From positions 1-54,218 of IMG/VR virus record IMGVR_UViG_3300037478_000320: a DNA stretch of 54,218 nucleotides, one strand, 5' to 3'. Below the pieces are notes generated by a model that was given only the letters and a program-made list of their open reading frames with translations, was not told where the DNA came from and made no database searches. Position numbers and translations under genes: made by a program. The DNA is from a virus. Its lineage: Duplodnaviria; Caudoviricetes. Shown piece by piece: positions 13,137 through 47,350 of the stretch. Every line of letters begins with the position of its first letter. Within the stretch, counting starts at the first letter, position 1.

Positions 13137-15134
13137 CTAAAGCTTAGTCCGCTGCAGGGCGCGCTCACCGCGCAAGTAAGACAGCCCCATCGAAAGGCTG
13201 TCGACCTGGTCATCGTGCGAGCCATTGGGGAAGATCGCGGTCTCGTGGATGAAGTCATCGAGCCAGGGCGCGGCCATCGGCAACAAAACGTTCCCGCCCT
13301 CGACGATACCCACCACGGAGAACGCGCGGGACTCCTTCGAGACCCCCTTCGGATCCCAGTCAATAATCCCCGACAGGTCGACCCGGAGCTCCACGATCAC
13401 GTCGGAGCCGGCTGCCTTGTCCTCGATGACTAGAGTCGACTTCGGATACTTCTCGCGAAGCTTCCGAATCGTTTTCTTCATGTCGAGGATGTCCATCGGC
13501 TTCGTGATGTTGTCGAGGATGTAGCGGTTCGGCCCGCACTCCCCAATGACAAGCATTGAAGTCCTCGATCCTGTGACTGTCTTTTTTGCGGAGCAGTCGA
13601 CGGGGATTATGATCCGGCGGAACGTTGGTAGCGGCTTTCCGGGGTCGTAGTAACGCCACCAAGATTTCTTGAACATCCCACCTTCCGCCGGCGCGGGTCG
13701 CTGCTGATGCTGACCTGCGAAGTAGTAGGATCCTTTCGCCTTCTCCTCGGTGAGCGTCTTGCCTCCCAAGCGGGCAGGGTGAAGGAGCTCCCCGGGCTCG
13801 CGGTGATCGTACTTGCCGAGGATGCTCGACTCGTTCCGGCAGTCCTCGCACTTACAAGCCAGCTTGTTCGAGGGCTGACCGAGCGACGGCTCGAACTCCG
13901 TCGGCAGACGAACGTGTCTCCACGTGCTCTGCGCCAGGACGTGACCGGCCCAGTCCTCTTCGTGGAGTCGCTGCATGATTCCGATGCGGAGACAGCGCTT
14001 CCTCGAGTTCACGCGGTTCTCGATCGCGGTGTCCCACTTATCGTTGACACCGGTTCGGATCAGCTCGCTATTGGCTTCCTTGGCGTCGAGGGGGTCGTCG
14101 ATGATGATGATGTCCGAGCCCTCGCCGGTGATCTTCTCGTTCGTGGTGGCGCTGTGGCGCTCGCCTCCGACTGAGTTCTGATAGAGCTCGATGGCGTCGA
14201 TGTCCGGGCGGATCTTCCACGCCGGATCGAAAGCTTGCTGGTACCACTCCGAAGAGATCAGGTCGCGACTCGCGCGGGCGGCCTTAGTTCTGACCTTGCC
14301 GTTACCTGAGAGGTATCGGATTTTGATGCTCGGATCGTGGAGCCAGAGCCACGCCGGGAAGAAAACGCCGCAAATCTCGGTTTTCAGGGACCGCGGAGGG
14401 ACGTTGATCAGAAGATTCTTGTCTTCGAGCTCGTATGTCTCTTCGTTCTCAGGATCCCGGAGCGCTTTGTCTCTGACGTCGAGAAGTTTGAACGCGAGGA
14501 ACTGGAGATGGTCGCAGATCGTTTTTAGATGCCAGTTCCAAGACAGCGGCTCACCGGGGTGGATTGTCTCCCATGCCTGGCGCACGAACTCGTGGAGATT
14601 CTTCTTGGCCTCCGGTCCGCGTCGCTGTGCCTTGGCAAACTTGATTCTCTTGAGCCGGTCGGCGAGTTTCCTGCGCTTCGCCGCTTGGATTCTCTCGAGT
14701 CGGGCCTCGAGGTCTTCGGGGCGTTTGGTCAGAACTCTTGCCGCGGTCCGGTCTCGCTCTGACGACTCCTCGTTCTCGGGCTTGGTGTCGCGGTCGACGA
14801 CGGCTTTGATTTTGCCGTGACACTCGGTCCCGTAGCGCTGGATCCGTGAATCTGACGGCTCGACGTAGCAAGCCGAGCAGTGGGGATCGTCGCGAAACCT
14901 AGATCCACACTTCGGACACTGCTCTGACGGCTCGTGTATGACGCTTTTCTCTGGTTCTGGATCTGATCTAACTTGTGACACGGATTTCATAGACGGATCA
15001 AATCGATCGTCGGCGATGACCGCGCGCCTGGGGGCGCCACCCCCCACCCCCGGGTCCGCCGCCGCGATCGGGGGGGAGGGGCAGATCGGGCACGAGCCGA
15101 CCTTTCTCACTAGCAGCGCGTGTGTGCAGCCCAC
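13137..15134 (-). CDS. terL: Terminase large subunit
   Basis: Walker A variant LLINVPPRSLKT, Walker B IIIIDDP, IMQRLHE.D, QQ.P, and nuclease motifs IEDKA.G and HDDQVD; true start may be downstream of 15134. Confidence 0.92.
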   Translation of the reverse strand: MGCTHALLVRKVGSCPICPSPPIAAADPGVGGGAPRRAVIADDRFDPSMKSVSQVRSDPEPEKSVIHEPSEQCPKCGSRFRDDPHCSACYVEPSDSRIQRYGTECHGKIKAVVDRDTKPENEESSERDRTAARVLTKRPEDLEARLERIQAAKRRKLADRLKRIKFAKAQRRGPEAKKNLHEFVRQAWETIHPGEPLSWNWHLKTICDHLQFLAFKLLDVRDKALRDPENEETYELEDKNLLINVPPRSLKTEICGVFFPAWLWLHDPSIKIRYLSGNGKVRTKAARASRDLISSEWYQQAFDPAWKIRPDIDAIELYQNSVGGERHSATTNEKITGEGSDIIIIDDPLDAKEANSELIRTGVNDKWDTAIENRVNSRKRCLRIGIMQRLHEEDWAGHVLAQSTWRHVRLPTEFEPSLGQPSNKLACKCEDCRNESSILGKYDHREPGELLHPARLGGKTLTEEKAKGSYYFAGQHQQRPAPAEGGMFKKSWWRYYDPGKPLPTFRRIIIPVDCSAKKTVTGSRTSMLVIGECGPNRYILDNITKPMDILDMKKTIRKLREKYPKSTLVIEDKAAGSDVIVELRVDLSGIIDWDPKGVSKESRAFSVVGIVEGGNVLLPMAAPWLDDFIHETAIFPNGSHDDQVDSLSMGLSYLRGERALQRTKL

Positions 15135-15790
15135 TATGGCCTTGCTTCCTTCGCTCGTCGCCTCGCCATGGACACTGTGCAGCCAAGCTCGTCGGCGATG
15201 GTCTTCCAGCTACATCCCTGCTGACGCATGTCGCGCACGTCATCGGCGCTTGGCCCCTTGCCCTTAGGCCTCCCTAGCGTCTTTCCTTTGGCCCTTGCGC
15301 GCTCGAGGCCCAACATGGTGCGCTCCCTGATCAGATCGCGCTCAAACTCCGCCACAGCCGCTAGCACGCCCAGGAGAAGCCTCGACATGGCATCGCCACC
15401 GGGCTTGACGTCGAGCCCTTGAGTGACAGCGACGAAGCGAACGCCGGCGCTGGCGAGAGACTCGATGTTCGCCAGGACGTCGAGCGAGCTCCGGCCGAAG
15501 CGATCGAGCTTCCATACCGCCACAGCGTCGATTTCACCCTTCCTGGCGGCCTCGAGGACGCGCTGTAGCCCCGGCCGTCCGTTCCAGGCGCCACTAGCGG
15601 TCTCAGTCACGTCGAGCGCTACGGAGCCGCCCTGTCGCTCTGCCCATCCCTCGAGCTCATTTCGTGCGAGCTCAGGATCCTGGTCGAGGGTCGACACGCG
15701 GTGGTAAATCCCGACGCGAAGCCCTGTCGAAATCGGGGCGTCAGAGACGCTAAAGCTAAGCGTGCGAGAGGTGGGGATTGAATTGCGCAT
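15134..15790 (-). CDS. Serine recombinase (resolvase/invertase) with C-terminal HTH
   Basis: Y.RVST..Q, SG....RPGL, KLDRFGRS, AEFER.LIRERT..GL..AR..G..LGRP. Confidence 0.93.
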   Translation of the reverse strand: MRNSIPTSRTLSFSVSDAPISTGLRVGIYHRVSTLDQDPELARNELEGWAERQGGSVALDVTETASGAWNGRPGLQRVLEAARKGEIDAVAVWKLDRFGRSSLDVLANIESLASAGVRFVAVTQGLDVKPGGDAMSRLLLGVLAAVAEFERDLIRERTMLGLERARAKGKTLGRPKGKGPSADDVRDMRQQGCSWKTIADELGCTVSMARRRAKEARP

Positions 15791-16468: not shown

Positions 16469-16666
16469 CTACTCGTAGTTCAGGGCCGCTCGGGTGTCCG
16501 CCAGGGACTCTCCGAGGTAGTCGGCGATCCAGATGGCGATCTTATCGATGTGGTCCATGCAGGCGTGGAAGTCTTCGCCGTCGTCGGTGTACTCGACCGT
16601 GTGGGCGATGCGGGGGCAGACGTCGCAGAGGGTTCGGTTCGTTTTGCTGTTCGGCGTGTTCATCAT
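16469..16666 (-). CDS. Small Cys/His protein, paralog of 12899-13093
   Basis: CDVCPR...DGEDFHACMDH...WIADY. Confidence 0.7.
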   Translation of the reverse strand: MMNTPNSKTNRTLCDVCPRIAHTVEYTDDGEDFHACMDHIDKIAIWIADYLGESLADTRAALNYE

Positions 16667-16718
16667 GTTTCTCAGTATACCCGCTAATTCACGGGGCGCA
16701 AGGGAAATCGTCAGAAAA
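16667..16718 (-). promoter_or_regulatory. Repeated promoter cassette, copy 3
   Basis: Reverse strand reads TTTTCTGACG...CTTGCGC...GGGTATACTGAGAAAC-ATG. Confidence 0.75.
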
Positions 16719-18275: not shown

Positions 18276-18419
18276 TTAGCTCCGCCGAGCGGCGGCGAGT
18301 ATCAGGTCCGCACGATCCTTGTACGCCTGGGCGGTGTCGAGCATTCCGGCGGCGCGGGCGGCTCGCTCGGAGCGGCGGAGGGTGAGGTAGCGGGCTTCGG
18401 TGTTCGTCTTGCTGTCCAT
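18276..18419 (-). CDS. Small hypothetical protein (47 aa)
   Basis: Leaderless start directly behind promoter copy 4. Confidence 0.55.
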   Translation of the reverse strand: MDSKTNTEARYLTLRRSERAARAAGMLDTAQAYKDRADLILAAARRS

Positions 18420-18471
18420 AATTCTCAGTATACCCATCTTTTTAGGGAGCGCAAGGGGAAACGTCAGAAAA
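18420..18471 (-). promoter_or_regulatory. Repeated promoter cassette, copy 4
   Basis: Reverse strand reads TTTTCTGACGTTTCCCC-TTGCGC-N16-TATACT-GAGAATT-ATG. Confidence 0.75.
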
Positions 18472-18474
18472 ATC

Positions 18475-18660
18475 TCAGCCCTTGATGATGGAGCTCCCAA
18501 GGTCGGTGGGCTCGAGGGTTCGAGCTCCCCAGCGAACCAGTCCAGCCTTGATCATCGCCGGAATGAGGGTGTCATCGGAGACGCGGGGCTCGAGATTGGC
18601 GTGGAGGGCACGAAGAACCTGGCGGGCGGCGGCGGCTCGGTTGGTGTTCTTGATTTCCAT
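18475..18660 (-). CDS. Small hypothetical protein (61 aa, wHTH-like end)
   Basis: Leaderless start behind promoter copy 5; L...GLV......PTDLG pattern. Confidence 0.55.
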   Translation of the reverse strand: MEIKNTNRAAAARQVLRALHANLEPRVSDDTLIPAMIKAGLVRWGARTLEPTDLGSSIIKG

Positions 18661-18713
18661 GTTTCTCAGTATACCCACCAATTCAGGGAGCGCAAGTGGA
18701 ATCCGTCAGAAAA
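18661..18713 (-). promoter_or_regulatory. Repeated promoter cassette, copy 5
   Basis: Reverse strand reads TTTTCTGACGG...CTTGCGC...GGGTATACTGAGAAAC-ATG. Confidence 0.75.
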
Positions 18714-18844: not shown

Positions 18845-19471
18845 ATGTTCGTCACCACCCGAGAGATCCTGTATTCGGCCTTGAGAGCCGTTCAACCCTT
18901 CATGTCCAAGGATGAGACCCGAGAGCACATGAACGGCGTTCGCATCGAGTTCGCCGACGGCGAGTGCCACCTGATCGCCACGGACGGAGTCGCCCTGGCG
19001 CATGTCAAGCTCGTGCGACCTGTTGGTGAGCGCGCCCCTAGCAATCTAGGGTTCTTCCTGACATCCGACCGGGTCAAAGAGGCGATCGCTCATGTCCGAC
19101 CGAAGGCGAAGGAGAGAGATCAACGCGTCGAGGTTCGAATCGCCGAGGGTATGGCGGCCGTTTTCCAACTCAGGGACGCCAACGGCAGTACCGACGGTCT
19201 GACATTCCGTCTCACGAAGACATCCGAGTTCCCTCCCTGGCGCCAGGTCACACCGCCCCGTGAGCACGTCAAGAAACCTACGGCCTTCGTCGGTATCGGG
19301 GGCTGGCAGCTAGAGCGCGCGGGGAAAGCGTGCAAGGCGTTCATGCCCACCGGCGTCGATCGGGGCTTCGTCGTTCGCACGCCAGAGTCGGAGCTCCACC
19401 CCGTGCGCCTCGACACCGACCACCCCGACCGCGGTTCCCTAACCGTCGTCATCATGCCGATGAGGGTCTGA
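18845..19471 (+). CDS. Beta sliding clamp-like protein (shortened DnaN fold)
   Basis: S.DETR...NGV, ATDG..LA, FP.W..V and terminal IMPMR motifs. Confidence 0.8.
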   Translation: MFVTTREILYSALRAVQPFMSKDETREHMNGVRIEFADGECHLIATDGVALAHVKLVRPVGERAPSNLGFFLTSDRVKEAIAHVRPKAKERDQRVEVRIAEGMAAVFQLRDANGSTDGLTFRLTKTSEFPPWRQVTPPREHVKKPTAFVGIGGWQLERAGKACKAFMPTGVDRGFVVRTPESELHPVRLDTDHPDRGSLTVVIMPMRV

Positions 19472-20064
19472 TGCGTCACCAGCACGACACCATCCCCGGC
19501 GACGTCTCCCTGTGCCGGTGCGGGCAGGGTAGGGCACACCTTGCGTGTGACTGCTTCGGTGTGGCCCTCGAGCACAGGCAGGAGCTCTACGCCCGAGCCC
19601 TGCAGCTCACCCGCAACCGCGCCGTCGCGGAGGACGTGCTACAGGAAACCCTCACCCGGGCGTTCGGCGCCTGGGAGCGCTTCGACGGGCGCAACGTCAG
19701 GGCATGGCTTCACCGGATTCTGACGAACTCCTTTATCACGCACTGGCGGTCGGAGTCCCGAGGGCGGATCGCGCGGGATCGTCTCCGGCGTGAGCTCGAT
19801 GAGGCGGTCGGGCCGGATGTCCCCGAGGGACTGTCAGACGAAGTTCAGTCCGCGCTCTTGTCGCTGCCGATGTGCTACTGGTCGGTGATCGTCCTGGCCG
19901 ACATGAAGGGCGAGAGCTACCGGCGTATTGCTGAGATGATCGGCGCCCCGATCGGGACCGTGATGTCTCGCTTGTTCCGCGGACGGCGGCTACTGCGCTC
20001 GGCTTTGAGCGAGTACGCGAGGGCTGAGTACGGAATTTCTGACGATGAGCGGAATAGTCTCTGA
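19471..20064 (+). CDS. ECF sigma-70 factor (SigR/SigH-like)
   Basis: Region 2 AEDVLQET..RA...RAWL.RILTN; region 4 SY..IAE..G.PIGTVMSRL.RGRR.L; ATG overlaps the clamp stop. Confidence 0.9.
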   Translation: MRHQHDTIPGDVSLCRCGQGRAHLACDCFGVALEHRQELYARALQLTRNRAVAEDVLQETLTRAFGAWERFDGRNVRAWLHRILTNSFITHWRSESRGRIARDRLRRELDEAVGPDVPEGLSDEVQSALLSLPMCYWSVIVLADMKGESYRRIAEMIGAPIGTVMSRLFRGRRLLRSALSEYARAEYGISDDERNSL

Positions 20065-20078
20065 CGCACGAAGCGTTG
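20051..20078 (+). promoter_or_regulatory. Candidate ECF (SigR/SigH-type) promoter
   Basis: GGAAT-N18-CGTTG, followed by SD-like AAGGAA and ATG at 20113. Confidence 0.4.
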
Positions 20079-20112
20079 TAGTACATAGAAACCTCTAACA
20101 AGGAAATCAGAT

Positions 20113-20766
20113 ATGGATACTGTCAGGTACAAGTACACACTCGAAGGCACTTCTCCTCTCCTCATGCACGCGAACAACGTCGATGCCCGAGACGCTCTCG
20201 AAAAGGAGCGAGCGACGGCGACCAAAGGCGGCAAGCGTGGCGACGACCGGAGCCCCGCCCACACGTGGAAAAGCTACCTCTACCACGACGGCGAAAGCCT
20301 GATCGTCCCTCTCGAGAACATGTTGGCGATGCTCATCGCCGCCGGCAAGAAGGTCAAGGTGCAGGGCAAAGAGACCCTGAAGACCTACACCACCCTGATC
20401 GACTTCGAGCAACAGGACGTGGCGTTGATGGTCGATGGAAAGCCGGTCAAGATGAGCGCCATCGCAGCCATCAAGGGCGACTTCGACGCCCAGCGCGCCG
20501 CCGCCGCCAAGCTCGGGTTCCGCCTCGACGTCAGACCGGTCCGCGTCGGTCAGAGTTCCCACATCCGCGTCCGACCGACGTTCGACCGGTGGTCTCTCGA
20601 GGGAACCTTCGCCATCGACAGCACCGACATCGACGTGCTGACCCGCGACCGCCTCGAGCTGCTCTTCGCCATCGCCGGTAAGCGGTGCGGCCTTCTCGAC
20701 TGGCGACCGAACGCACCGACCCCGGGCCGCTTCGGTCGGTTCGCTCCCACCATCGAGGCGATCTGA
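20113..20766 (+). CDS. Stand-alone RAMP/Cas7-like RNA-binding protein (Vipr-like effector)
   Basis: RAMP hallmarks: first strand LEGTSPLLMH, IVP...L...L helix start, thumb-like hairpin VRPVRVGQSSHIRVRP, C-terminal Gly-rich loop GLLDWRP....GRFGRF; adjacent repeat array; no other cas genes in the locus. Confidence 0.75.
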   Translation: MDTVRYKYTLEGTSPLLMHANNVDARDALEKERATATKGGKRGDDRSPAHTWKSYLYHDGESLIVPLENMLAMLIAAGKKVKVQGKETLKTYTTLIDFEQQDVALMVDGKPVKMSAIAAIKGDFDAQRAAAAKLGFRLDVRPVRVGQSSHIRVRPTFDRWSLEGTFAIDSTDIDVLTRDRLELLFAIAGKRCGLLDWRPNAPTPGRFGRFAPTIEAI

Positions 20767-21260
20767 TGGACGCGAAAGACATTCGCTACCAGCGCGACGC
20801 CGCCTTCATTGGCCTACGCCCGCTCCTCGAGAGCAAGAAGCGCGGCGACAGGATCACCGCCGCCGAGATCCGAGACGCGACCGGCTTCGACGACTGGAAA
20901 GGGCTGCGCTCGAGGATCCGGCAGTACTTCGAGGCGAAGGGACTTTTCCTTCGCGCCGTCCCGAACGACGGCTACCGGATCATCGCCGGCAACGAACACG
21001 CCGACGAGTCGGCCCGACACCAGCGCACGGCTCTGAAGCGAGAGATCAAGTCCCTGAACGTCATCTCATCGGCTCCGGTCGAGGAGTTGTCGGATGATGA
21101 GGTCCGCCGTGTGCGTTTTCAGCGCGATCGGTCGGTCCGTCGCGTGGAGCTCGCCGCGAGCCACGACCAGGACAACTATCACAAGCTCGGGATCAAGCCC
21201 CTTCGGCAGAGGATCCCGGCGCTTCGCCTCAAGAGCGGAGACGAGCAAGAGCAGAGTTAG
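20766..21260 (+). CDS. Winged-helix-like accessory protein of the RAMP locus (164 aa)
   Basis: TGATG coupling to the RAMP gene; GD.IT..EI...R....L.AVPNDGYRI wHTH-like pattern plus basic helical C-terminus. Confidence 0.65.
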   Translation: MDAKDIRYQRDAAFIGLRPLLESKKRGDRITAAEIRDATGFDDWKGLRSRIRQYFEAKGLFLRAVPNDGYRIIAGNEHADESARHQRTALKREIKSLNVISSAPVEELSDDEVRRVRFQRDRSVRRVELAASHDQDNYHKLGIKPLRQRIPALRLKSGDEQEQS

Positions 21261-21270
21261 ATTTCCGTCC

Positions 21271-21948
21271 GGCATGGCATGGTTCGGTGCGCTTGGGTTA
21301 GGCTCGGCAGGGCGCGGCTTGGTACGGACGGGCACGGTAAGGCACGGCTTGGCGAGCAGCCCTCGGGGAGATCACGTTCAAACCGAGGGCACTAAGTATG
21401 GCTGGTCTAGGTCTGTTGTGGCATGGCGAGGCGCGGATCGGTCGGGCTTGTTCTGGCGGGTTGTGACAGGGTAAGCAGCCCTCGGGGAGATCATGCTCAA
21501 ACCGAGGGCACCAATTCAAGGTCAGTTCAGGCTAGGTCCGGCATGGCCGGGTCCGGCACGGTGTTGCGGGGCGGGGTTTGGCTAGGCTAGTTCTGGAAGG
21601 CGAGCAGCCCTCGGGGAGATCACGTTCAAACCGAGGGCACCAAGTGTGGTCCGGTTGGTTAGGTCGGGTTTGGTAGGACGTGGTATTGCTGGCTATGGTG
21701 TGGCAAGGTATGGTGAGCAGCCCTCGGGGAGATCACGTTCAATCCGAGGGCACCAAACAGGGTGTGGTGTTGTCTGACGGGGTTGGGCTAGGCGAGGCTC
21801 GGTGAGTTTGGGCCAGGCGCGGCAAGCTGCGGTTTGGCGAGCAGTCCTCGGGGAGATCACGTTCAAACCGAGGGCACCAACATGGCAGGTTGTGGCGCGG
21901 CGGGGTCGGCTCGGGTGTGGTTAGGTTCGGTCAGACAGGGGACGGCTC
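21271..21948 (+). ncRNA. Array of six candidate guide RNAs made of GGY-NN pentamer tracts
   Basis: Tracts at 21271-21355, 21400-21474, 21520-21603, 21648-21716, 21761-21840 and 21884-21948; 13-17 pentamers each; positions 1-3 mostly GGC/GGT, positions 4-5 variable. Confidence 0.8.
21356..21877 (+). repeat. Five 37-nt hairpin direct repeats GCAGCCCTCGGGGAGATCACGTTCAAACCGAGGGCAC
   Basis: Copies at 21356, 21475, 21604, 21717 and 21841 (periods 119, 129, 113, 124); 8-bp stem GCCCTCGG/CCGAGGGC. Confidence 0.95.
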
Positions 21949-22131
21949 GCCGTCGGATTGCAAACGCTTTCCGATCGCGGGCCGTTTTCTGTCTGACGGC
22001 TGAGGGGCGTTTGGGGACTCCCGACCGCCCCCGTTCGCCCCAGTGTCTCAAAAGTGGGCACCCTTGAATTTCACTTACCGTTGAAATTGCTGATATGGGA
22101 TCCGGACCGGGTTTTGCTTTATTCCCGCCTC

Positions 22132-22887
22132 ATGGGATACAAGCCTAAAACTCCGACCAATGCCGATCTGAGCAACCTGATCCACCGACAGGCTGCCGAC
22201 CAGTCAGAAGTCAACGAGAGCGTCGCAAACAAACTCCTGGCCATCGACGCCGCCGTCGGGGAGATCGCCAAGCTCGTCAGAGGCGTGGTCGCCGACGTGG
22301 ACCGGAACACCGAGGGCCTCGCTCGAGTCGAGGAAGCCATCAGCGTAAGAGCGAACGGACACGACCCGCGGCCCGTCATGGTCAAAACGGCCCCTGACAT
22401 CGAGAAGCTACTAGCCCCAGGGTCCATGTATTTGGCTGACATCGTCAGCGAGGCCGATGAACCGGCCGAGGTGGTTCAGAGAAAGCTGGACGAGCTGATC
22501 GCGGCCGACAAGGTTTGGAAGACGGATGACGTCTACCCTACTTACTCCCTGAGGAACGAGAACTATGTCGGAGACGACACGGCTGTTCCTGTCTTGATGG
22601 ACGCGATCCGCCGTCTGATCTCTGTCGAGCCAACCAACCAAGGCGAGCTCGAGGAAGCTACCGGGGCCAGGACACAACGCATTAGCGACTGCCTGACTCG
22701 GATGCAAAAGACCGGGGAGATCCTGAAACTAGAGAATCGGAATGGATCTCCCTATTTCCGACCAGAGGATCAGAGCCCGAAGGCCAGAAAAGCCAGGAAA
22801 GCAGCGTACCACCGAAGGGTAGCTAAGAAGAAACGAGATAAGGAAAAGCGAGATAAGGAGAAGTCGGGGTTCAGGACGCCTTCGTGA
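22132..22887 (+). CDS. Putative DNA-binding protein: coiled coil, two wHTH-like domains, basic tail
   Basis: LADIV.......VQRKLDELI...KV and NQGELEEATG.....ISDCLTRM...GEI patterns. Confidence 0.6.
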   Translation: MGYKPKTPTNADLSNLIHRQAADQSEVNESVANKLLAIDAAVGEIAKLVRGVVADVDRNTEGLARVEEAISVRANGHDPRPVMVKTAPDIEKLLAPGSMYLADIVSEADEPAEVVQRKLDELIAADKVWKTDDVYPTYSLRNENYVGDDTAVPVLMDAIRRLISVEPTNQGELEEATGARTQRISDCLTRMQKTGEILKLENRNGSPYFRPEDQSPKARKARKAAYHRRVAKKKRDKEKRDKEKSGFRTPS

Positions 22888-29188: not shown

Positions 29189-29488
29189 TCATTCGACGGG
29201 ACTCCCTCGTCGACCGATCGACTGACCGAGCAGACCTGACGGCCACTCGCGGAACAGCCGAATCAACATGGCGACCACGTCGACCAACTCATCGTGCATG
29301 GCCTCGGAGCGAGGGCGTTTCTCCGAGCCGCTTGTGGCTGCCTTGATCAGCTCGCCGGCCTCCTCCGCCAAACGGCAGCAAGTGAACTCGCAGGATGAGT
29401 GCAAACCCCACCGCTGCACCGCAAGGTCAGCCCGAGCAAACGCCTCAGACAGCACTAGGTCGAAGTAGACTTCTTCGGTGTCGATCAC
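29189..29488 (-). CDS. MazG-like NTP pyrophosphohydrolase
   Basis: LAEEAGEL..A...DELVDV motifs; start approximate. Confidence 0.65.
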   Translation of the reverse strand: MIDTEEVYFDLVLSEAFARADLAVQRWGLHSSCEFTCCRLAEEAGELIKAATSGSEKRPRSEAMHDELVDVVAMLIRLFREWPSGLLGQSIGRRGSPVE

Positions 29489-30093
29489 AGTGAAAGCTCG
29501 TGGTAGCGGAGAAGAAATGCGACCTCGGCGCGCTCCGGGGAGTAACCGGCGATCTCGGCCCCGAGCGGCTCGGAAGTAACACCCTTCGACCGGAGATAAG
29601 CTGCGCCGTTCGTCAGGAGCGCGAGGCACTCGTCGATGACAACCCCGACATCGGCGGCGTGGACCGCGGCGGCGGATTCCGGCGTGGACTTGACGCCAAA
29701 GCGCTCATAGATCGTACGGGAAACGGTTTTCTCCAGCGTGCGAAAACCGAGCATGACACTCAGTGACTTGAGCTGTTTAATCATGTCCCCCACGACTGCC
29801 TCGCTGGCGTCGTGCATGAGACCTTCGAGGGCGTATTCCTCGGGCACTAGTCGACTGACAAGCACTGAGTGCTCCGCGACCGTGTACGTCACCCGGGTAG
29901 CGCCGCCGTATCGCCCGCAGCCGAAGGCCAGGTGGTGCGCGATGTCTTCGATCTCGAAGTCCTCGGGTCGGAGATCGAGTGGGTACCAGAGCTGGCCGGT
30001 GAAGGTCGGCATCGACGGACCGAAGCGGGAACGCGACGGCCCGGAGAACTCCTCGAAAGACATAGTCCCCTTGGGCCATTGACCACAGGTCAT
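29485..30093 (-). CDS. HD-domain (YfbR-like) nucleotide phosphohydrolase
   Basis: IEDIAH.L, R..G, Y.VAEHS, LMHDASEA..GD. Confidence 0.85.
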   Translation of the reverse strand: MTCGQWPKGTMSFEEFSGPSRSRFGPSMPTFTGQLWYPLDLRPEDFEIEDIAHHLAFGCGRYGGATRVTYTVAEHSVLVSRLVPEEYALEGLMHDASEAVVGDMIKQLKSLSVMLGFRTLEKTVSRTIYERFGVKSTPESAAAVHAADVGVVIDECLALLTNGAAYLRSKGVTSEPLGAEIAGYSPERAEVAFLLRYHELSL

Positions 30094-30347
30094 AGCGCGT
30101 AACTCCCGAGCGACCGCGTCAGGCCGATCTGCTTCGTCTCTCCCGTGACCTCGCTCTGCCATTCGTAGACGTAGGCGCCGAAGATATGGACGCGACCGTC
30201 GACGACTTCCTCGAGGCGCTCGAACTCGACAAGCTCCCAGCCCCTGACCCCGTTGCGGGGGAAGGGGAGAAGCGCAGGAGGCAGACCTCCGAGGATGAAG
30301 CCGTTGCTGACTGCTGGGTACATCAGACGCGCTCCGGCCACGACCAC
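30090..30347 (-). CDS. Hypothetical protein
   Basis: ATGA coupling in the operon; start uncertain. Confidence 0.4.
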   Translation of the reverse strand: MVVAGARLMYPAVSNGFILGGLPPALLPFPRNGVRGWELVEFERLEEVVDGRVHIFGAYVYEWQSEVTGETKQIGLTRSLGSYAL

Positions 30348-30538
30348 TCGCCCGCGCCGGTGCCCTCAACGACGAACAGCCGAGGGTACATATGGTTGTA
30401 ATTGAACACCTGCAGGTGAACACTATCGCCCTCGTCATTCACCTTCGTGATGATCGCAGCCCTGGGCTCGATAGCGCCCTCGGAGTGGATCAAGTAGTGA
30501 ACGATCCGACCAACACTCGGCTTCGGTTTCATAATCAT
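30323..30538 (-). CDS. Small conserved phage protein (P.VGRIVHY family)
   Basis: KPSVGRIVHY...AAIIT.V...W.WP.RV pattern. Confidence 0.7.
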   Translation of the reverse strand: MIMKPKPSVGRIVHYLIHSEGAIEPRAAIITKVNDEGDSVHLQVFNYNHMYPRLFVVEGTGAGEWSWPERV

Positions 30539-32960: not shown

Positions 32961-33347
32961 TTAGCCTTCGCCGCAACCCGGACAACCGTTGTAGGTCTGG
33001 GCGCACTCTGAGCATAGTCGCTCGCCACAGGGACACTCTAAAACGTCATCCTCGGTCTCGCAGACGAAGCATCGCTGTTCGTCCCAGACCCAGCCGTCGA
33101 CGGTCTCGTATAGTGATCCGTCTTCGAGTCGCCGATCGATCTCCCCGTTCAGCCACGCATGAACAACGCACCCTATCTCCTGGTCGGCTTTGTGTTTAGA
33201 GAACTCGATCTTCATTCGCCGAAGCAGGTCCTCTCGGAAATCCGCAGGTGTAGCCTCTGTGAATGTCACGGTCATCTCTCGACCGCTCAATGAGACGCTT
33301 GAGCACCCAGGCCAAGCGAGCATCGTTACTTTGACTGTTAATTTCAT
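32961..33347 (-). CDS. Hypothetical protein with C-terminal Cys-rich zinc finger
   Basis: CFVC...CPCG..LC..C.....CPGC; ATGA coupling to the integrase. Confidence 0.6.
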   Translation of the reverse strand: MKLTVKVTMLAWPGCSSVSLSGREMTVTFTEATPADFREDLLRRMKIEFSKHKADQEIGCVVHAWLNGEIDRRLEDGSLYETVDGWVWDEQRCFVCETEDDVLECPCGERLCSECAQTYNGCPGCGEG

Positions 33348-34423
33348 CCCGTCTTTCCTCCCTGTAGCAGTTTCAGACCCTCGACGACTTCGCCAGCTTC
33401 CTCCGCGCCGGGCTCGGCGTAGTGTCGACGCATGACCTCGGGGTCATTACCGAGCTGGTCGGCGATCAGCTGAGCCGCGATCCCTCGCTTCGACAGCAAG
33501 GTCGCGATCAGACCACGCATGGAGTGAGCCGTGGCGTTCGGGATCTCTGCTTTCTTGCAGACCCGATGCACTTGGTCGCGGACCCATTGCCGGGTGTGGG
33601 GGCGATCCTTCCGACCACGGAAAATCGGATCCCCGGGCTCGCGACCGTCGACCAGCTTCAAGAGCATGTCCGACAGGAGCTCGGGGACCTCTAGGGTCAA
33701 ATCCTTCTCGTTCTTTCGATCCTCGACGTGGATGACGTCGCCGGGTCGCTCGTCTTCGTCGAGGTTCCCGCAGACCAGACCGACGATCTCGGACGCTCGG
33801 AGTCCCAGGAGCACGGCGACGATCCCGGCGACGGCGCCGTAGTCATTGGATTCGGACATCTCGAGCGCGGCGCCGTACCACTTCCGGGCATCCTTGATCC
33901 GCATCTTGTACCCCGACTTGCCCAGGCTCTTGCCCCGGGGGCGGAGCTTGCCGACCCCCTTAACCTTCGTCGCCGGGTGCTCCTTGAGGTGACCGCCGTC
34001 GACGCACCATTGGAGAAACGTCTTCGTCTCCTTGAGCGCGGCGCGGTGGCTGTCGGGGGCCAGGGGCTCGCCGGTCGTCTTGCTCGGCCGCGTCCTCAGG
34101 TCGTCATAGAGCGCCTGACAGCGCGCCGGTGACAGGGCGGCCAGTGGTAGGGGCTTGGGAAAGAATCTCGCCAGGGCCCACTCCGTGCGCTCGATGGAAC
34201 GCTCTTTGAGCCCACGTTCCCGGAGCTCGCGGATGTAGCGCTTGGTGAGGGAGTCGGTGGTGCGATCGAGCTGCGCGATCCCGGCTCGGAGGATCTCTAC
34301 GTAGCGCTCGGCTTCCGCTTCGCTGCGAAACGCTCGAGAGACTTTCGAGCCATCTCCTGTAATTTCGATGACTCGGTATCGGTCTCGTCCGGCTTCAAAG
34401 TATGGTCCGAGGACTCGTTCCAT
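33344..34423 (-). CDS. int: Tyrosine integrase
   Basis: GLRASE (R), K, HSMR (HxxR), LGN, HY catalytic set. Confidence 0.9.
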   Translation of the reverse strand: MERVLGPYFEAGRDRYRVIEITGDGSKVSRAFRSEAEAERYVEILRAGIAQLDRTTDSLTKRYIRELRERGLKERSIERTEWALARFFPKPLPLAALSPARCQALYDDLRTRPSKTTGEPLAPDSHRAALKETKTFLQWCVDGGHLKEHPATKVKGVGKLRPRGKSLGKSGYKMRIKDARKWYGAALEMSESNDYGAVAGIVAVLLGLRASEIVGLVCGNLDEDERPGDVIHVEDRKNEKDLTLEVPELLSDMLLKLVDGREPGDPIFRGRKDRPHTRQWVRDQVHRVCKKAEIPNATAHSMRGLIATLLSKRGIAAQLIADQLGNDPEVMRRHYAEPGAEEAGEVVEGLKLLQGGKTG

Positions 34424-46527: not shown

Positions 46528-46772
46528 CCCAGGATCTCTTCCATCTTCTCGGCGAACTCGATGACGAGTCGCTCCACCTTCGCGGCGTTGCCTTCGTCGA
46601 GTTGGAGCTTCCATGACCACGGGATATGAACAAAGAAGCTGTCGTTGCCATCGACTAGATCGCTCATGTCCCCGACATCGAGCCACCCGTTCAGACGTTC
46701 CTCGAGGGTCTGGGCCAGCCTATTGATGCGCTCGTACCAATCCTTTTCCATCAACCACTCCTTTTCCGTCAC
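46524..46772 (-). CDS. Hypothetical protein
   Basis: Overlapping start/stop on both sides. Confidence 0.55.
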   Translation of the reverse strand: MTEKEWLMEKDWYERINRLAQTLEERLNGWLDVGDMSDLVDGNDSFFVHIPWSWKLQLDEGNAAKVERLVIEFAEKMEEILG

Positions 46773-47350
46773 TTTGAATCCTTCCAGGGCTGTCCAGGAT
46801 CTTTGGGCAACATGTTGAACTGGACAGCCTGTTCAATCGCCATGTTCAGGCTCGCGGCTGCGTGAGAGACGTGGGGTAGTCCCGACTCGTCATCGGCGGC
46901 GTAGGCGGCGGCCTTCATGCCCTCGACGTCCTCGAGGTTGGGATCGCTTGCCTGGTGAAGTTCCATGCTGTCGAGGGCGTCGCCGATATGATCCTGAGCG
47001 GCGCGCAGGTATGCGCGGAGCCGCTCAAAGTCCTTGGCGACACTTCCGGTGGGTCGGAGGTAGTTCGCGCGCTCGTACTTGTCGTTTCCGTATTCGCAGG
47101 CACGGGCGCAGTAAACCCGGAGAGATTTCCGTACGTGCGTCGTGTCAGGCTTAATTCCGGAGTTCAGCGCCGCTTTCATGTCTCGGGGCGCGTCGGAAGC
47201 GCCGCCGGTGAGACACTCTCCTTGACAGGAGATCGGACACGCAACCGGTTCAGCGTTGTTAAGGCAACTAGAATCGCAGCACCAAATACAGGGGTGCTGG
47301 CAATCGAGATCGTCACAGGAGTCCCCCCAGACGCAAACTTCGATGTCCAT
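46769..47350 (-). CDS. DUF5664-like dATP/dGTP diphosphohydrolase
   Basis: YG..KY...N and D.ESGLPH..HAA motifs. Confidence 0.7.
   Translation of the reverse strand: MDIEVCVWGDSCDDLDCQHPCIWCCDSSCLNNAEPVACPISCQGECLTGGASDAPRDMKAALNSGIKPDTTHVRKSLRVYCARACEYGNDKYERANYLRPTGSVAKDFERLRAYLRAAQDHIGDALDSMELHQASDPNLEDVEGMKAAAYAADDESGLPHVSHAAASLNMAIEQAVQFNMLPKDPGQPWKDSK

Follow-up and report, generated by a model that had tools for sequence, protein, structure and literature searches.

A probable VIPR system with six tandem guide units in the genome of an uncultured sediment phage

The sequence analyzed here, IMG/VR record IMGVR_UViG_3300037478_000320 (the window, 54,218 bp over its full length), is the complete record of an uncultured sediment phage with a GC content of 62%, and its segment at positions 20113–21960 is very probably an apparently intact VIPR system. 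VIPR (Viral Interference Programmable Repeat) has been described by one laboratory in three preprints (bioRxiv 10.64898/2026.04.26.720920, 10.64898/2026.04.26.720927 and 10.64898/2026.10.15.759431). Such systems are built from Vipr, a small RAMP protein, and vrRNAs, in most cases together with a single accessory gene (vap); each vrRNA consists of 9–16 YNNGG repeats followed by an invariable structured tail (bioRxiv 10.64898/2026.04.26.720920). In the window, vipr (open reading frame 1, ORF1; 20113–20766, plus strand) encodes a 217-aa Cas7-like RAMP protein. The vap1-like gene (ORF2; 20766–21260, plus strand) encodes 164 aa, and its ATG overlaps the TGA of ORF1 (ATGA). The guide array starts at 21271 with the first GGY unit, 10 nt past the ORF2 stop, and runs to ∼21960. 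This layout agrees with the coordinates of an initial annotation made from the letters alone, which had named VIPR as the matching class of system and had supposed that the class might already be known. It is: the class, its mechanism and arrays of this general type were published in 2026, and the locus is a further example, not a new class.

The proposed identity was borne out by comparison with the PDB. A family profile built from 73 homologs of ORF1 had a single match among PDB sequences, 36pp_D, annotated as ‘SUSP1 Vipr protein’ (E 5.4e-23, 85 bits), and the match was full length (profile positions 1–214 against chain residues 1–189). Escherichia phage SUSP1 carries Vipr, Vap1 and four vrRNAs and represents type II VIPR (bioRxiv 10.64898/2026.04.26.720920, 10.64898/2026.04.26.720927). 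In a large protein collection 112 homologs of ORF1 were found, and a tblastn search returned 121 phage records, mostly Felixounavirus-like coliphages together with three Gordonia phage records. One coliphage homolog, from Enterobacteria phage ECP2307, is 27% identical to ORF1 (BLASTP, E 2e-13) and almost the same as the 36pp sequence, with very few substitutions. The residues of SUSP1 Vipr that contact the GGY bases are known from its cryo-EM structure (bioRxiv 10.64898/2026.04.26.720927). The contacts of G1, H17 and D177, align to H19 and D196 of ORF1; those of G2, R138 and W178, align to R154 and W197; and those of Y3, R179 and C173, align to R198 and C192. Within the 73-homolog alignment, H19, R154 and R198 do not vary, and conservation of D196 and W197 is at least 90%. 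General family collections were less informative, as no Pfam family was assigned to ORF1 or ORF2, and in PHROGs ORF1 belongs to phrog_4652 (E 4e-19), which is listed as of unknown function.

The predicted structure of ORF1 is in line with this assignment. The AlphaFold2 model (predicted local distance difference test, pLDDT, 94.2; predicted template modeling score, pTM, 0.88) has an RRM core, a β-hairpin thumb at residues ∼137–157 and a Gly-rich loop at ∼189–210 that contains D196-W197-R198. Among the Foldseek matches listed, all were CRISPR effector complexes (type VII Cas7, Csm3, Cmr4, Csf2 and Cas7-11; best E 2.9e-5), and the top 16 rows of a VIA-align structure comparison were all Cas7-type RAMPs. 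The proposal that the gene is a lone RAMP/Cas7-like gene was therefore upheld by the fold check it had called for. By homology and predicted fold, ORF1 is Vipr, a minimal Cas7-like RAMP and a full-length homolog of SUSP1 Vipr. Its sequence identity to the Cas7 subunits of class 1 CRISPR systems (Csm3, Cmr4, type VII Cas7, Csf2 and Cas7-11 domains) is 7–16%. Unlike class 1 effectors, it is accompanied by no CRISPR array and no other cas genes and has no second RRM. The two also differ in step, which is 5 nt with three buried bases in VIPR and 6 nt with one flipped base in class 1 Cas7.

ORF2 shows weak direct similarity to its relatives. A profile iterated on the ORFs of the related loci described below converges on one vap family, which adjoins vipr in 71 of the 80 viral loci and matches the gene following vipr in ECP2307 (E 5e-25). 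From synteny and the near-identity of the two Vipr proteins, we infer that this ECP2307 gene is the ortholog of SUSP1 vap1, and on these sequence grounds ORF2 is a vap1-like accessory gene. In its AlphaFold2 model (pLDDT 90.6), residues 3–73 form a helix-strand-helix-helix-strand-strand domain, and the C-terminal part comprises two long helices (75–101 and 110–141). The N-terminal domain is, at modest strength, a predicted winged helix, as had been claimed initially. According to the legend of figure S21 of the first preprint, type II vap proteins have a winged helix, and vap proteins of types II, VI and VII are given there as DNA-binding (bioRxiv 10.64898/2026.04.26.720920). Together, the vap1-like gene and the GGY-NN-plus-tail architecture of the guides suggest that the locus belongs to VIPR type II.

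The guide array consists of six tracts with a strong 5-nt period, all on the plus strand. The period-5 power of G is 2.4–6.3 across the six tracts. Shuffled sequences averaged ∼0.25, and in 2000 shuffles per tract the observed value was never attained. When 80-nt windows of the entire 54-kb sequence were ranked by period-5 score, the top 39 all started within 21241–21901. A dynamic-programming parse divided the tracts into 17, 15, 17, 14, 16 and ∼13 units, with two 4-nt slips. The 93 parsed 5-nt units have G at position 1 in 88 cases, G at position 2 in 76 and a pyrimidine (C or T) at position 3 in 89, counts that somewhat overstate the constraint since the parse itself favored GGY. At positions 4 and 5 the composition is near-uniform, with all 16 dinucleotides present 4–10 times each. 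The description of positions 1–3 as constrained and 4–5 as free thus holds, and tract 1 reads as originally quoted, with GGY in 15 of its 17 units. A fixed-register GG[CT]NN caller found 15/17, 7/10, 12/14, 9/12, 12/16 and 8/10 conforming units in tracts 1–6, and no further call on either strand of the 54-kb genome.

The first guide, vrRNA1 (21271–21395), has 17 GGY-NN units (21271–21355) and tail 1 (21355–21395). In vrRNA2 (21400–21514), 15 units, four of which are GTY variants, precede tail 2 (21474–21514). vrRNA3 (21520–21643) and vrRNA4 (21648–21756) contain 17 and 14 units, respectively, each with one 4-nt slip, and end in tail 3 (21603–21643) and tail 4 (21716–21756). vrRNA5 (21761–21880) has 16 units and tail 5 (21840–21880). 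The last guide, vrRNA6 (21884–21958), has ∼10 good units before it degenerates, and its 3′ portion supplies the 5′ arm of a long hairpin. This hairpin is the first of two plus-strand closing hairpins at 21930–22047, with 28-nt arms at 21930–21957 and 21970–21997; the second occupies 21998–22047. They fold together at −78 kcal/mol (z −7.8), a stability equaled by none of 200 shuffles. The closing hairpins probably act as a terminator and may also provide vrRNA6 with a substitute 3′ cap.

The same arrangement recurs in relatives. The comparison covered 80 IMG/VR viral loci (35–43% Vipr identity) and 23 loci in genome assemblies of bacteria and archaea from many phyla, with Vipr identities of 33–44% across the whole set. 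By a Fourier measure, period-5 G tracts adjoin the vipr-like gene in 76 of the 80 viral loci. The GG[CT]NN caller found tracts on the vipr strand in 79/80 viral and 19/23 genome loci (98/103 in total), and on the opposite strand in 4/103. The inspection of homolog neighborhoods that had been suggested as a check thus gave a positive answer. These counts bear on the alternative that the tracts act as DNA, for instance as G-quadruplexes or origin repeats, or as coding sequence for a Gly/Trp-rich ORF, and not as guide RNA. GG every 5 nt could give two-tetrad G-quadruplex structures, and mechanically called ORFs do overlap the array (e.g. 21094–21474 and 21834–22067). However, a period of 5 nt, not being divisible by three, keeps no reading frame, the overlapping ORFs are short and in differing frames, and the tracts keep to the vipr strand next to vipr. 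In SUSP1, moreover, such a tract is a sequenced RNA that co-purifies with Vipr (bioRxiv 10.64898/2026.04.26.720920). A role as DNA or coding sequence is therefore very improbable.

Related loci contain 0–14 tracts each (median 3), with six or more in 13 loci, so six guides is a high number but not an unusual one. Like the locus in the window, most relatives have vap-like genes, and some have tight multi-guide arrays and small hairpin tails; one IMG/VR locus, L021, has nine units at 103–145 nt spacing with small hairpin tails. Among them vap may precede or follow vipr, and the guides occupy different positions; unlike here, the tails are mostly of the form ‘GGG + short hairpin’ or shorter. In several IMG/VR loci (L008, L015, L005, L006 and others) very short inter-guide elements such as GGAAC(A/G) or GGATCG replace the hairpin tail. 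These may correspond to the ‘staggered’ arrays mentioned in the preprint.

Five of the six guides have a structured 3′ tail, with copies starting at 21355, 21474, 21603, 21716 and 21840, and the sixth ends in the different long hairpin described above. The initial annotation had recognized five hairpin repeats; their number and fold stand, but their length is not 37 nt: the invariant block (AGCAG...CACYAA) is 41 nt, or 45 nt counting the semi-conserved last GGYRA unit. In the alignment of the five copies 40 of 48 columns are invariant, with a mean column identity of 93%. Each copy forms an 8-bp stem (CCCUCGGG/CCGAGGG) with a 16-nt loop at −16 to −21 kcal/mol (z −2.0 to −3.9), and the loop contains an invariant palindromic GAUC. 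Tail 2 is a variant copy with three changed positions, yet its 5′ AGCA can still form four base pairs with the loop; this single variant hints at a tail pseudoknot between these elements. A covariance model of the tail gave nothing convincing in the 80 related viral loci (best 19 bits, E 0.05), and the tail hairpin of this locus was not seen among the ∼100 relatives. The exact gapped tail pattern had 0 matches in IMG/VR and 0 in JGI metagenomes, with near-identical records possibly lying outside the searched set. In a scan of 20000–22300 against Rfam no match was better than E 1.4, with no ribozyme or known RNA family.

With hairpin repeats alternating with longer tracts and a Cas7-like protein encoded next to them, the locus has the appearance of an unusual CRISPR array whose cas genes lie elsewhere, the 41-nt hairpins being the repeats and the 72–94-nt tracts the spacers. 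Yet these ‘spacers’ share a fixed GGY-NN grammar, which argues that they are not captured foreign DNA, and in relatives such tracts come with tails that are very short or of quite another kind. Cas1, Cas2, Cas3 and Cas6 families were absent from the 84 ORFs of the genome that were scanned (36 with PHROGs, 48 with Pfam), where the only nuclease of Cas-like flavor is a PD-(D/E)XK protein 17 kb from the locus. Contiguous matches (0-nt skip) to the tracts within the window did not rise above controls. We therefore consider a CRISPR array extremely improbable, in agreement with the original statements that the tracts are not captured spacers and that cas1, cas2, cas3 and cas6 are missing. In VIPR the guide grammar is encoded, and not acquired as it is in CRISPR.

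The linkers between each tail and the next tract are only 3–5 nt long, and a sigma-70 scan of 19200–22400 found no promoter-like site, with the reservation that the sigma-70 consensus may not be that of the host. Because of these short linkers and the lack of a promoter-like site between a tail and the following tract, the anatomy of the array makes a single precursor the most likely arrangement: the six guides would be transcribed together with vipr-vap and released by cleavage at the tail or close to it. A tentative and rather doubtful elaboration is a CRISPR-like maturation in which either a host RNase or Vipr/Vap itself cuts a long pre-vrRNA at the 41-nt hairpin ‘repeat’, with no ribozymes and no per-guide promoters; the loop GAUC might pair the tails of two filaments, and the terminator hairpin would cap the last guide. 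If true, this would be a processing route that is not described in the accessible text of the VIPR preprints and a closer formal analog of pre-crRNA maturation.

In the published systems each repeat is bound by one protomer, which buries GGY; double-stranded DNA is read by the NN pairs, one base being skipped per unit, and this binding silences transcription (bioRxiv 2026 VIPR preprints). Full-length homology and the conserved contact residues allow the mechanism of SUSP1 to be carried over to the locus in the window. By this analogy, each pentamer would be bound by one Vipr protomer to give a helical filament, with GGY buried and the NN pairs displayed. The displayed pairs would read double-stranded DNA as NNxNNx... 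and form an R-loop or triplex that blocks transcription, and the winged-helix Vap1-like protein would assist, probably on DNA. The initial proposal that each subunit grips a GGY and presents NN as a non-contiguous guide coincides with the mechanism given in the preprints and is extended to this locus on the same analogy. Natural targets of VIPR are satellites and prophages, and seven types are distinguished (bioRxiv 10.64898/2026.04.26.720920). The role of the present locus is thus probably, by analogy, the silencing of competing phages, prophages or satellites in the host. This role is assigned by analogy only, because the seeded target scans described below gave no natural target.

Targets were sought inside and outside the phage. 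Within the 54-kb genome no match at 0–2-nt skip exceeded shuffled-order controls; at 1-nt skip the best matches covered 17–20 of 26–34 positions, no better than the controls, and the matches at 3-nt skip were the array itself. The preprint likewise reports no self-targeting by its VIPR systems (bioRxiv 10.64898/2026.04.26.720920). External scans used eight perfect units as a seed under the NNx rule for all six guides in IMG/VR, and a 9-unit vrRNA1 seed in JGI metagenomes. IMG/VR yielded five loci for vrRNA1 (best 23/34), three for vrRNA2 (best 21/30), three for vrRNA3 (best 25/34), five for vrRNA4 (best 20/24), 14 for vrRNA5 (best 23/32) and two for vrRNA6 (best 17/26), and the 9-unit vrRNA1 seed yielded 12 loci in the metagenomes (best 26/34). 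Two vrRNA4 matches at 20/24 (83%) were rejected as targets: the seed alone accounts for 16 of the 24 positions, 4/8 at the others is about a 1-in-9 event, and the sites are unrelated and AT-rich. Guides aimed at related VIPR loci were also rejected, since the best matches in 464 kb from 80 loci were no better than shuffled-order controls.

Four of the five vrRNA1 loci from IMG/VR represent one conserved gene family. In these four unrelated-looking viral contigs (L082–L085), positions 201–223 encode a common stretch, VRVKALEY, on the reverse strand, and differ at wobble positions only. The stretch matches eight consecutive NN pairs of vrRNA1 by chance and nothing beyond, which illustrates that a single NNx seed can match an entire gene family.

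Several observations weigh against an intact, functioning system. In the 44 loci of the seven seeded scans, matching beyond the seed was 1–9 of 8–18 positions, approximately what is expected by chance. In the protein, SUSP1 K33 (a phosphate contact at the skipped base) aligns to A34 of ORF1, in a segment that is poorly aligned and has the lowest pLDDT. The fold of the tail is based on five near-identical copies without covariation, and the tail has no detectable relative. Guides 2, 4 and 6 are rich in non-GGY units (7/10, 9/12 and 8/10 conforming) and possibly partly decayed, and vrRNA6 lacks a tail copy. Finally, among the sequencing runs searched, the locus was present in DNA runs only and in no RNA run. 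Pieces of the locus were found in contigs of four DNA runs from four studies (three sediment, one soil), with 0 differences in the longer pieces; one of these runs is possibly the source of the record, and the contigs break within the array.

Some of these points would also fit a decaying or inactive VIPR remnant in which some or all guides are degenerate passengers, as such a remnant could account for the non-GGY units of vrRNA2, vrRNA4 and vrRNA6, the loss of the tail from vrRNA6 and the failure of any guide to yield a target. Against this, both ORFs are intact and retain all tested GGY-contact residues, the GC content at third codon positions of vipr (0.84) is typical of the coding genes of the phage, and the five tails have kept their near-identity. 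Missing targets are, moreover, expected for an uncultured phage whose host is not known. Perfect seeds of 8–9 units are also stricter and less sensitive than the seedless nhmmer search of the preprint (at least 80% of NN), and for this reason the lack of a target is not evidence against function. A remnant is accordingly improbable, and an intact VIPR system is the preferred reading.

Comparison with the best-described system, SUSP1, brings out both common and particular features. The two have in common homologous Vipr proteins with the GGY contacts, a homologous vap1-like gene directly downstream, a phage-borne location, no cas genes, and GGY-NN tracts followed on the same strand by a conserved structured 3′ tail. 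It differs in that the Vipr proteins are only 27% identical and that it lies in a 62% GC genome of an uncultured sediment phage. The six guides here follow vap head to tail with 3–5-nt linkers, whereas in ECP2307, a member of the SUSP1 clade, guides lie both upstream and downstream of the genes, and each is preceded by tens of nucleotides of AT-rich DNA. The 41-nt tail, with its 8-bp stem and 16-nt loop, shows no sequence relationship to that of the SUSP1 clade, for which a pseudoknot is reported, and the tracts reach 17 units compared with the published 9–16 (bioRxiv 10.64898/2026.04.26.720920). With regard to the suggestion that this instance or its architecture might be new, arrays of this general type are published, and the tail, the tight six-guide array and the tail-less guide 6 are particular to this copy. 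The type II VIPR of a Pseudomonas fulva prophage, compared by its description only, is likewise a two-gene vipr-vap1 operon with several vrRNAs on a temperate element, and its targets are regulators of resident prophages (bioRxiv 10.64898/2026.04.26.720920). By analogy, prophage regulators are the most plausible kind of target for the locus in the window.

The genes around the locus are those of a tailed phage. PHROGs and Pfam scans identified tail sheath, baseplate, portal, large terminase (TerL) and major head proteins, as well as family-A DNA polymerase pieces, a primase-helicase, a DNA methyltransferase and an amidase endolysin. The genome encodes both a tyrosine integrase (33344–34423, minus strand; Phage_integrase E 7e-12) and a serine resolvase/invertase (15134–15790, minus strand; Pfam Resolvase E 5e-37) that adjoins the terminase. 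Judging from the sheath, portal, TerL, capsid and integrase genes, the phage is contractile-tailed and probably temperate. Among cultured phages, the closest TerL proteins are only ∼33% identical (Myxococcus phage Mx4 and Roseobacter phages). A scan of the genome found no tRNA genes, and searches with the capsid protein gave no match in 401 sampled genomes from the phylum of a Planctomycetaceae metagenome-assembled genome or in five genomes carrying Vipr relatives.

Immediately upstream of the locus, an extracytoplasmic function (ECF)-type sigma factor gene (19330, or ∼19471, to 20064, plus strand; Pfam Sigma70_r2 E 4e-16, Sigma70_r4_2 E 5e-10; phrog_1740) ends 48 nt before vipr, and the two may be co-transcribed. 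No homolog of the sigma factor, of the upstream 224-aa protein, which has weak clamp-like and RusA-like matches, or of the downstream 277-aa protein was found in L001 or in any of the 80 related viral loci. As the flanking genes are not common to relatives, the conserved portable cassette consists of vipr, vap and the vrRNAs.

Two features elsewhere in the genome were recorded. A repeat of ∼76 nt occurs in three copies (16643–16718, 18396–18471 and 18637–18712) that are 68–74% identical. On the minus strand each has a promoter-like pair, TTGCGC...TATACT, followed by the ATG of a small minus-strand ORF, and two of these ORFs begin MDSKTNTE... and MEIKNTNR...; the arrangement looks like a repeated early promoter or leader before paralogous small genes. 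In addition, a 193-aa ORF (46769–47350, minus strand) contains a dATP/dGTP diphosphohydrolase N-terminal domain (PF18909, E 6e-7), and a deoxyribonucleoside-monophosphate phosphatase-like gene lies at 29485–30438 (phrog_318, E 3e-43). The pair hints at manipulation of the nucleotide pool or modification of DNA bases; among the ORFs scanned, none resembling adenylosuccinate synthetase was noticed.

In summary, VIPR, proposed in the 2026 bioRxiv preprints as ancestral to CRISPR, is a recently described class of RNA-guided DNA recognition, to which the locus at 20113–21960 very probably adds a well-preserved member of high GC content, carried by an uncultured sediment phage. The locus indicates that the residues contacting GGY stay conserved at a protein identity of 27%. 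The known mechanism is unchanged by it; its use would be comparative, for recognizing which parts of the tail are essential, by what route arrays are processed and what length a guide can reach.

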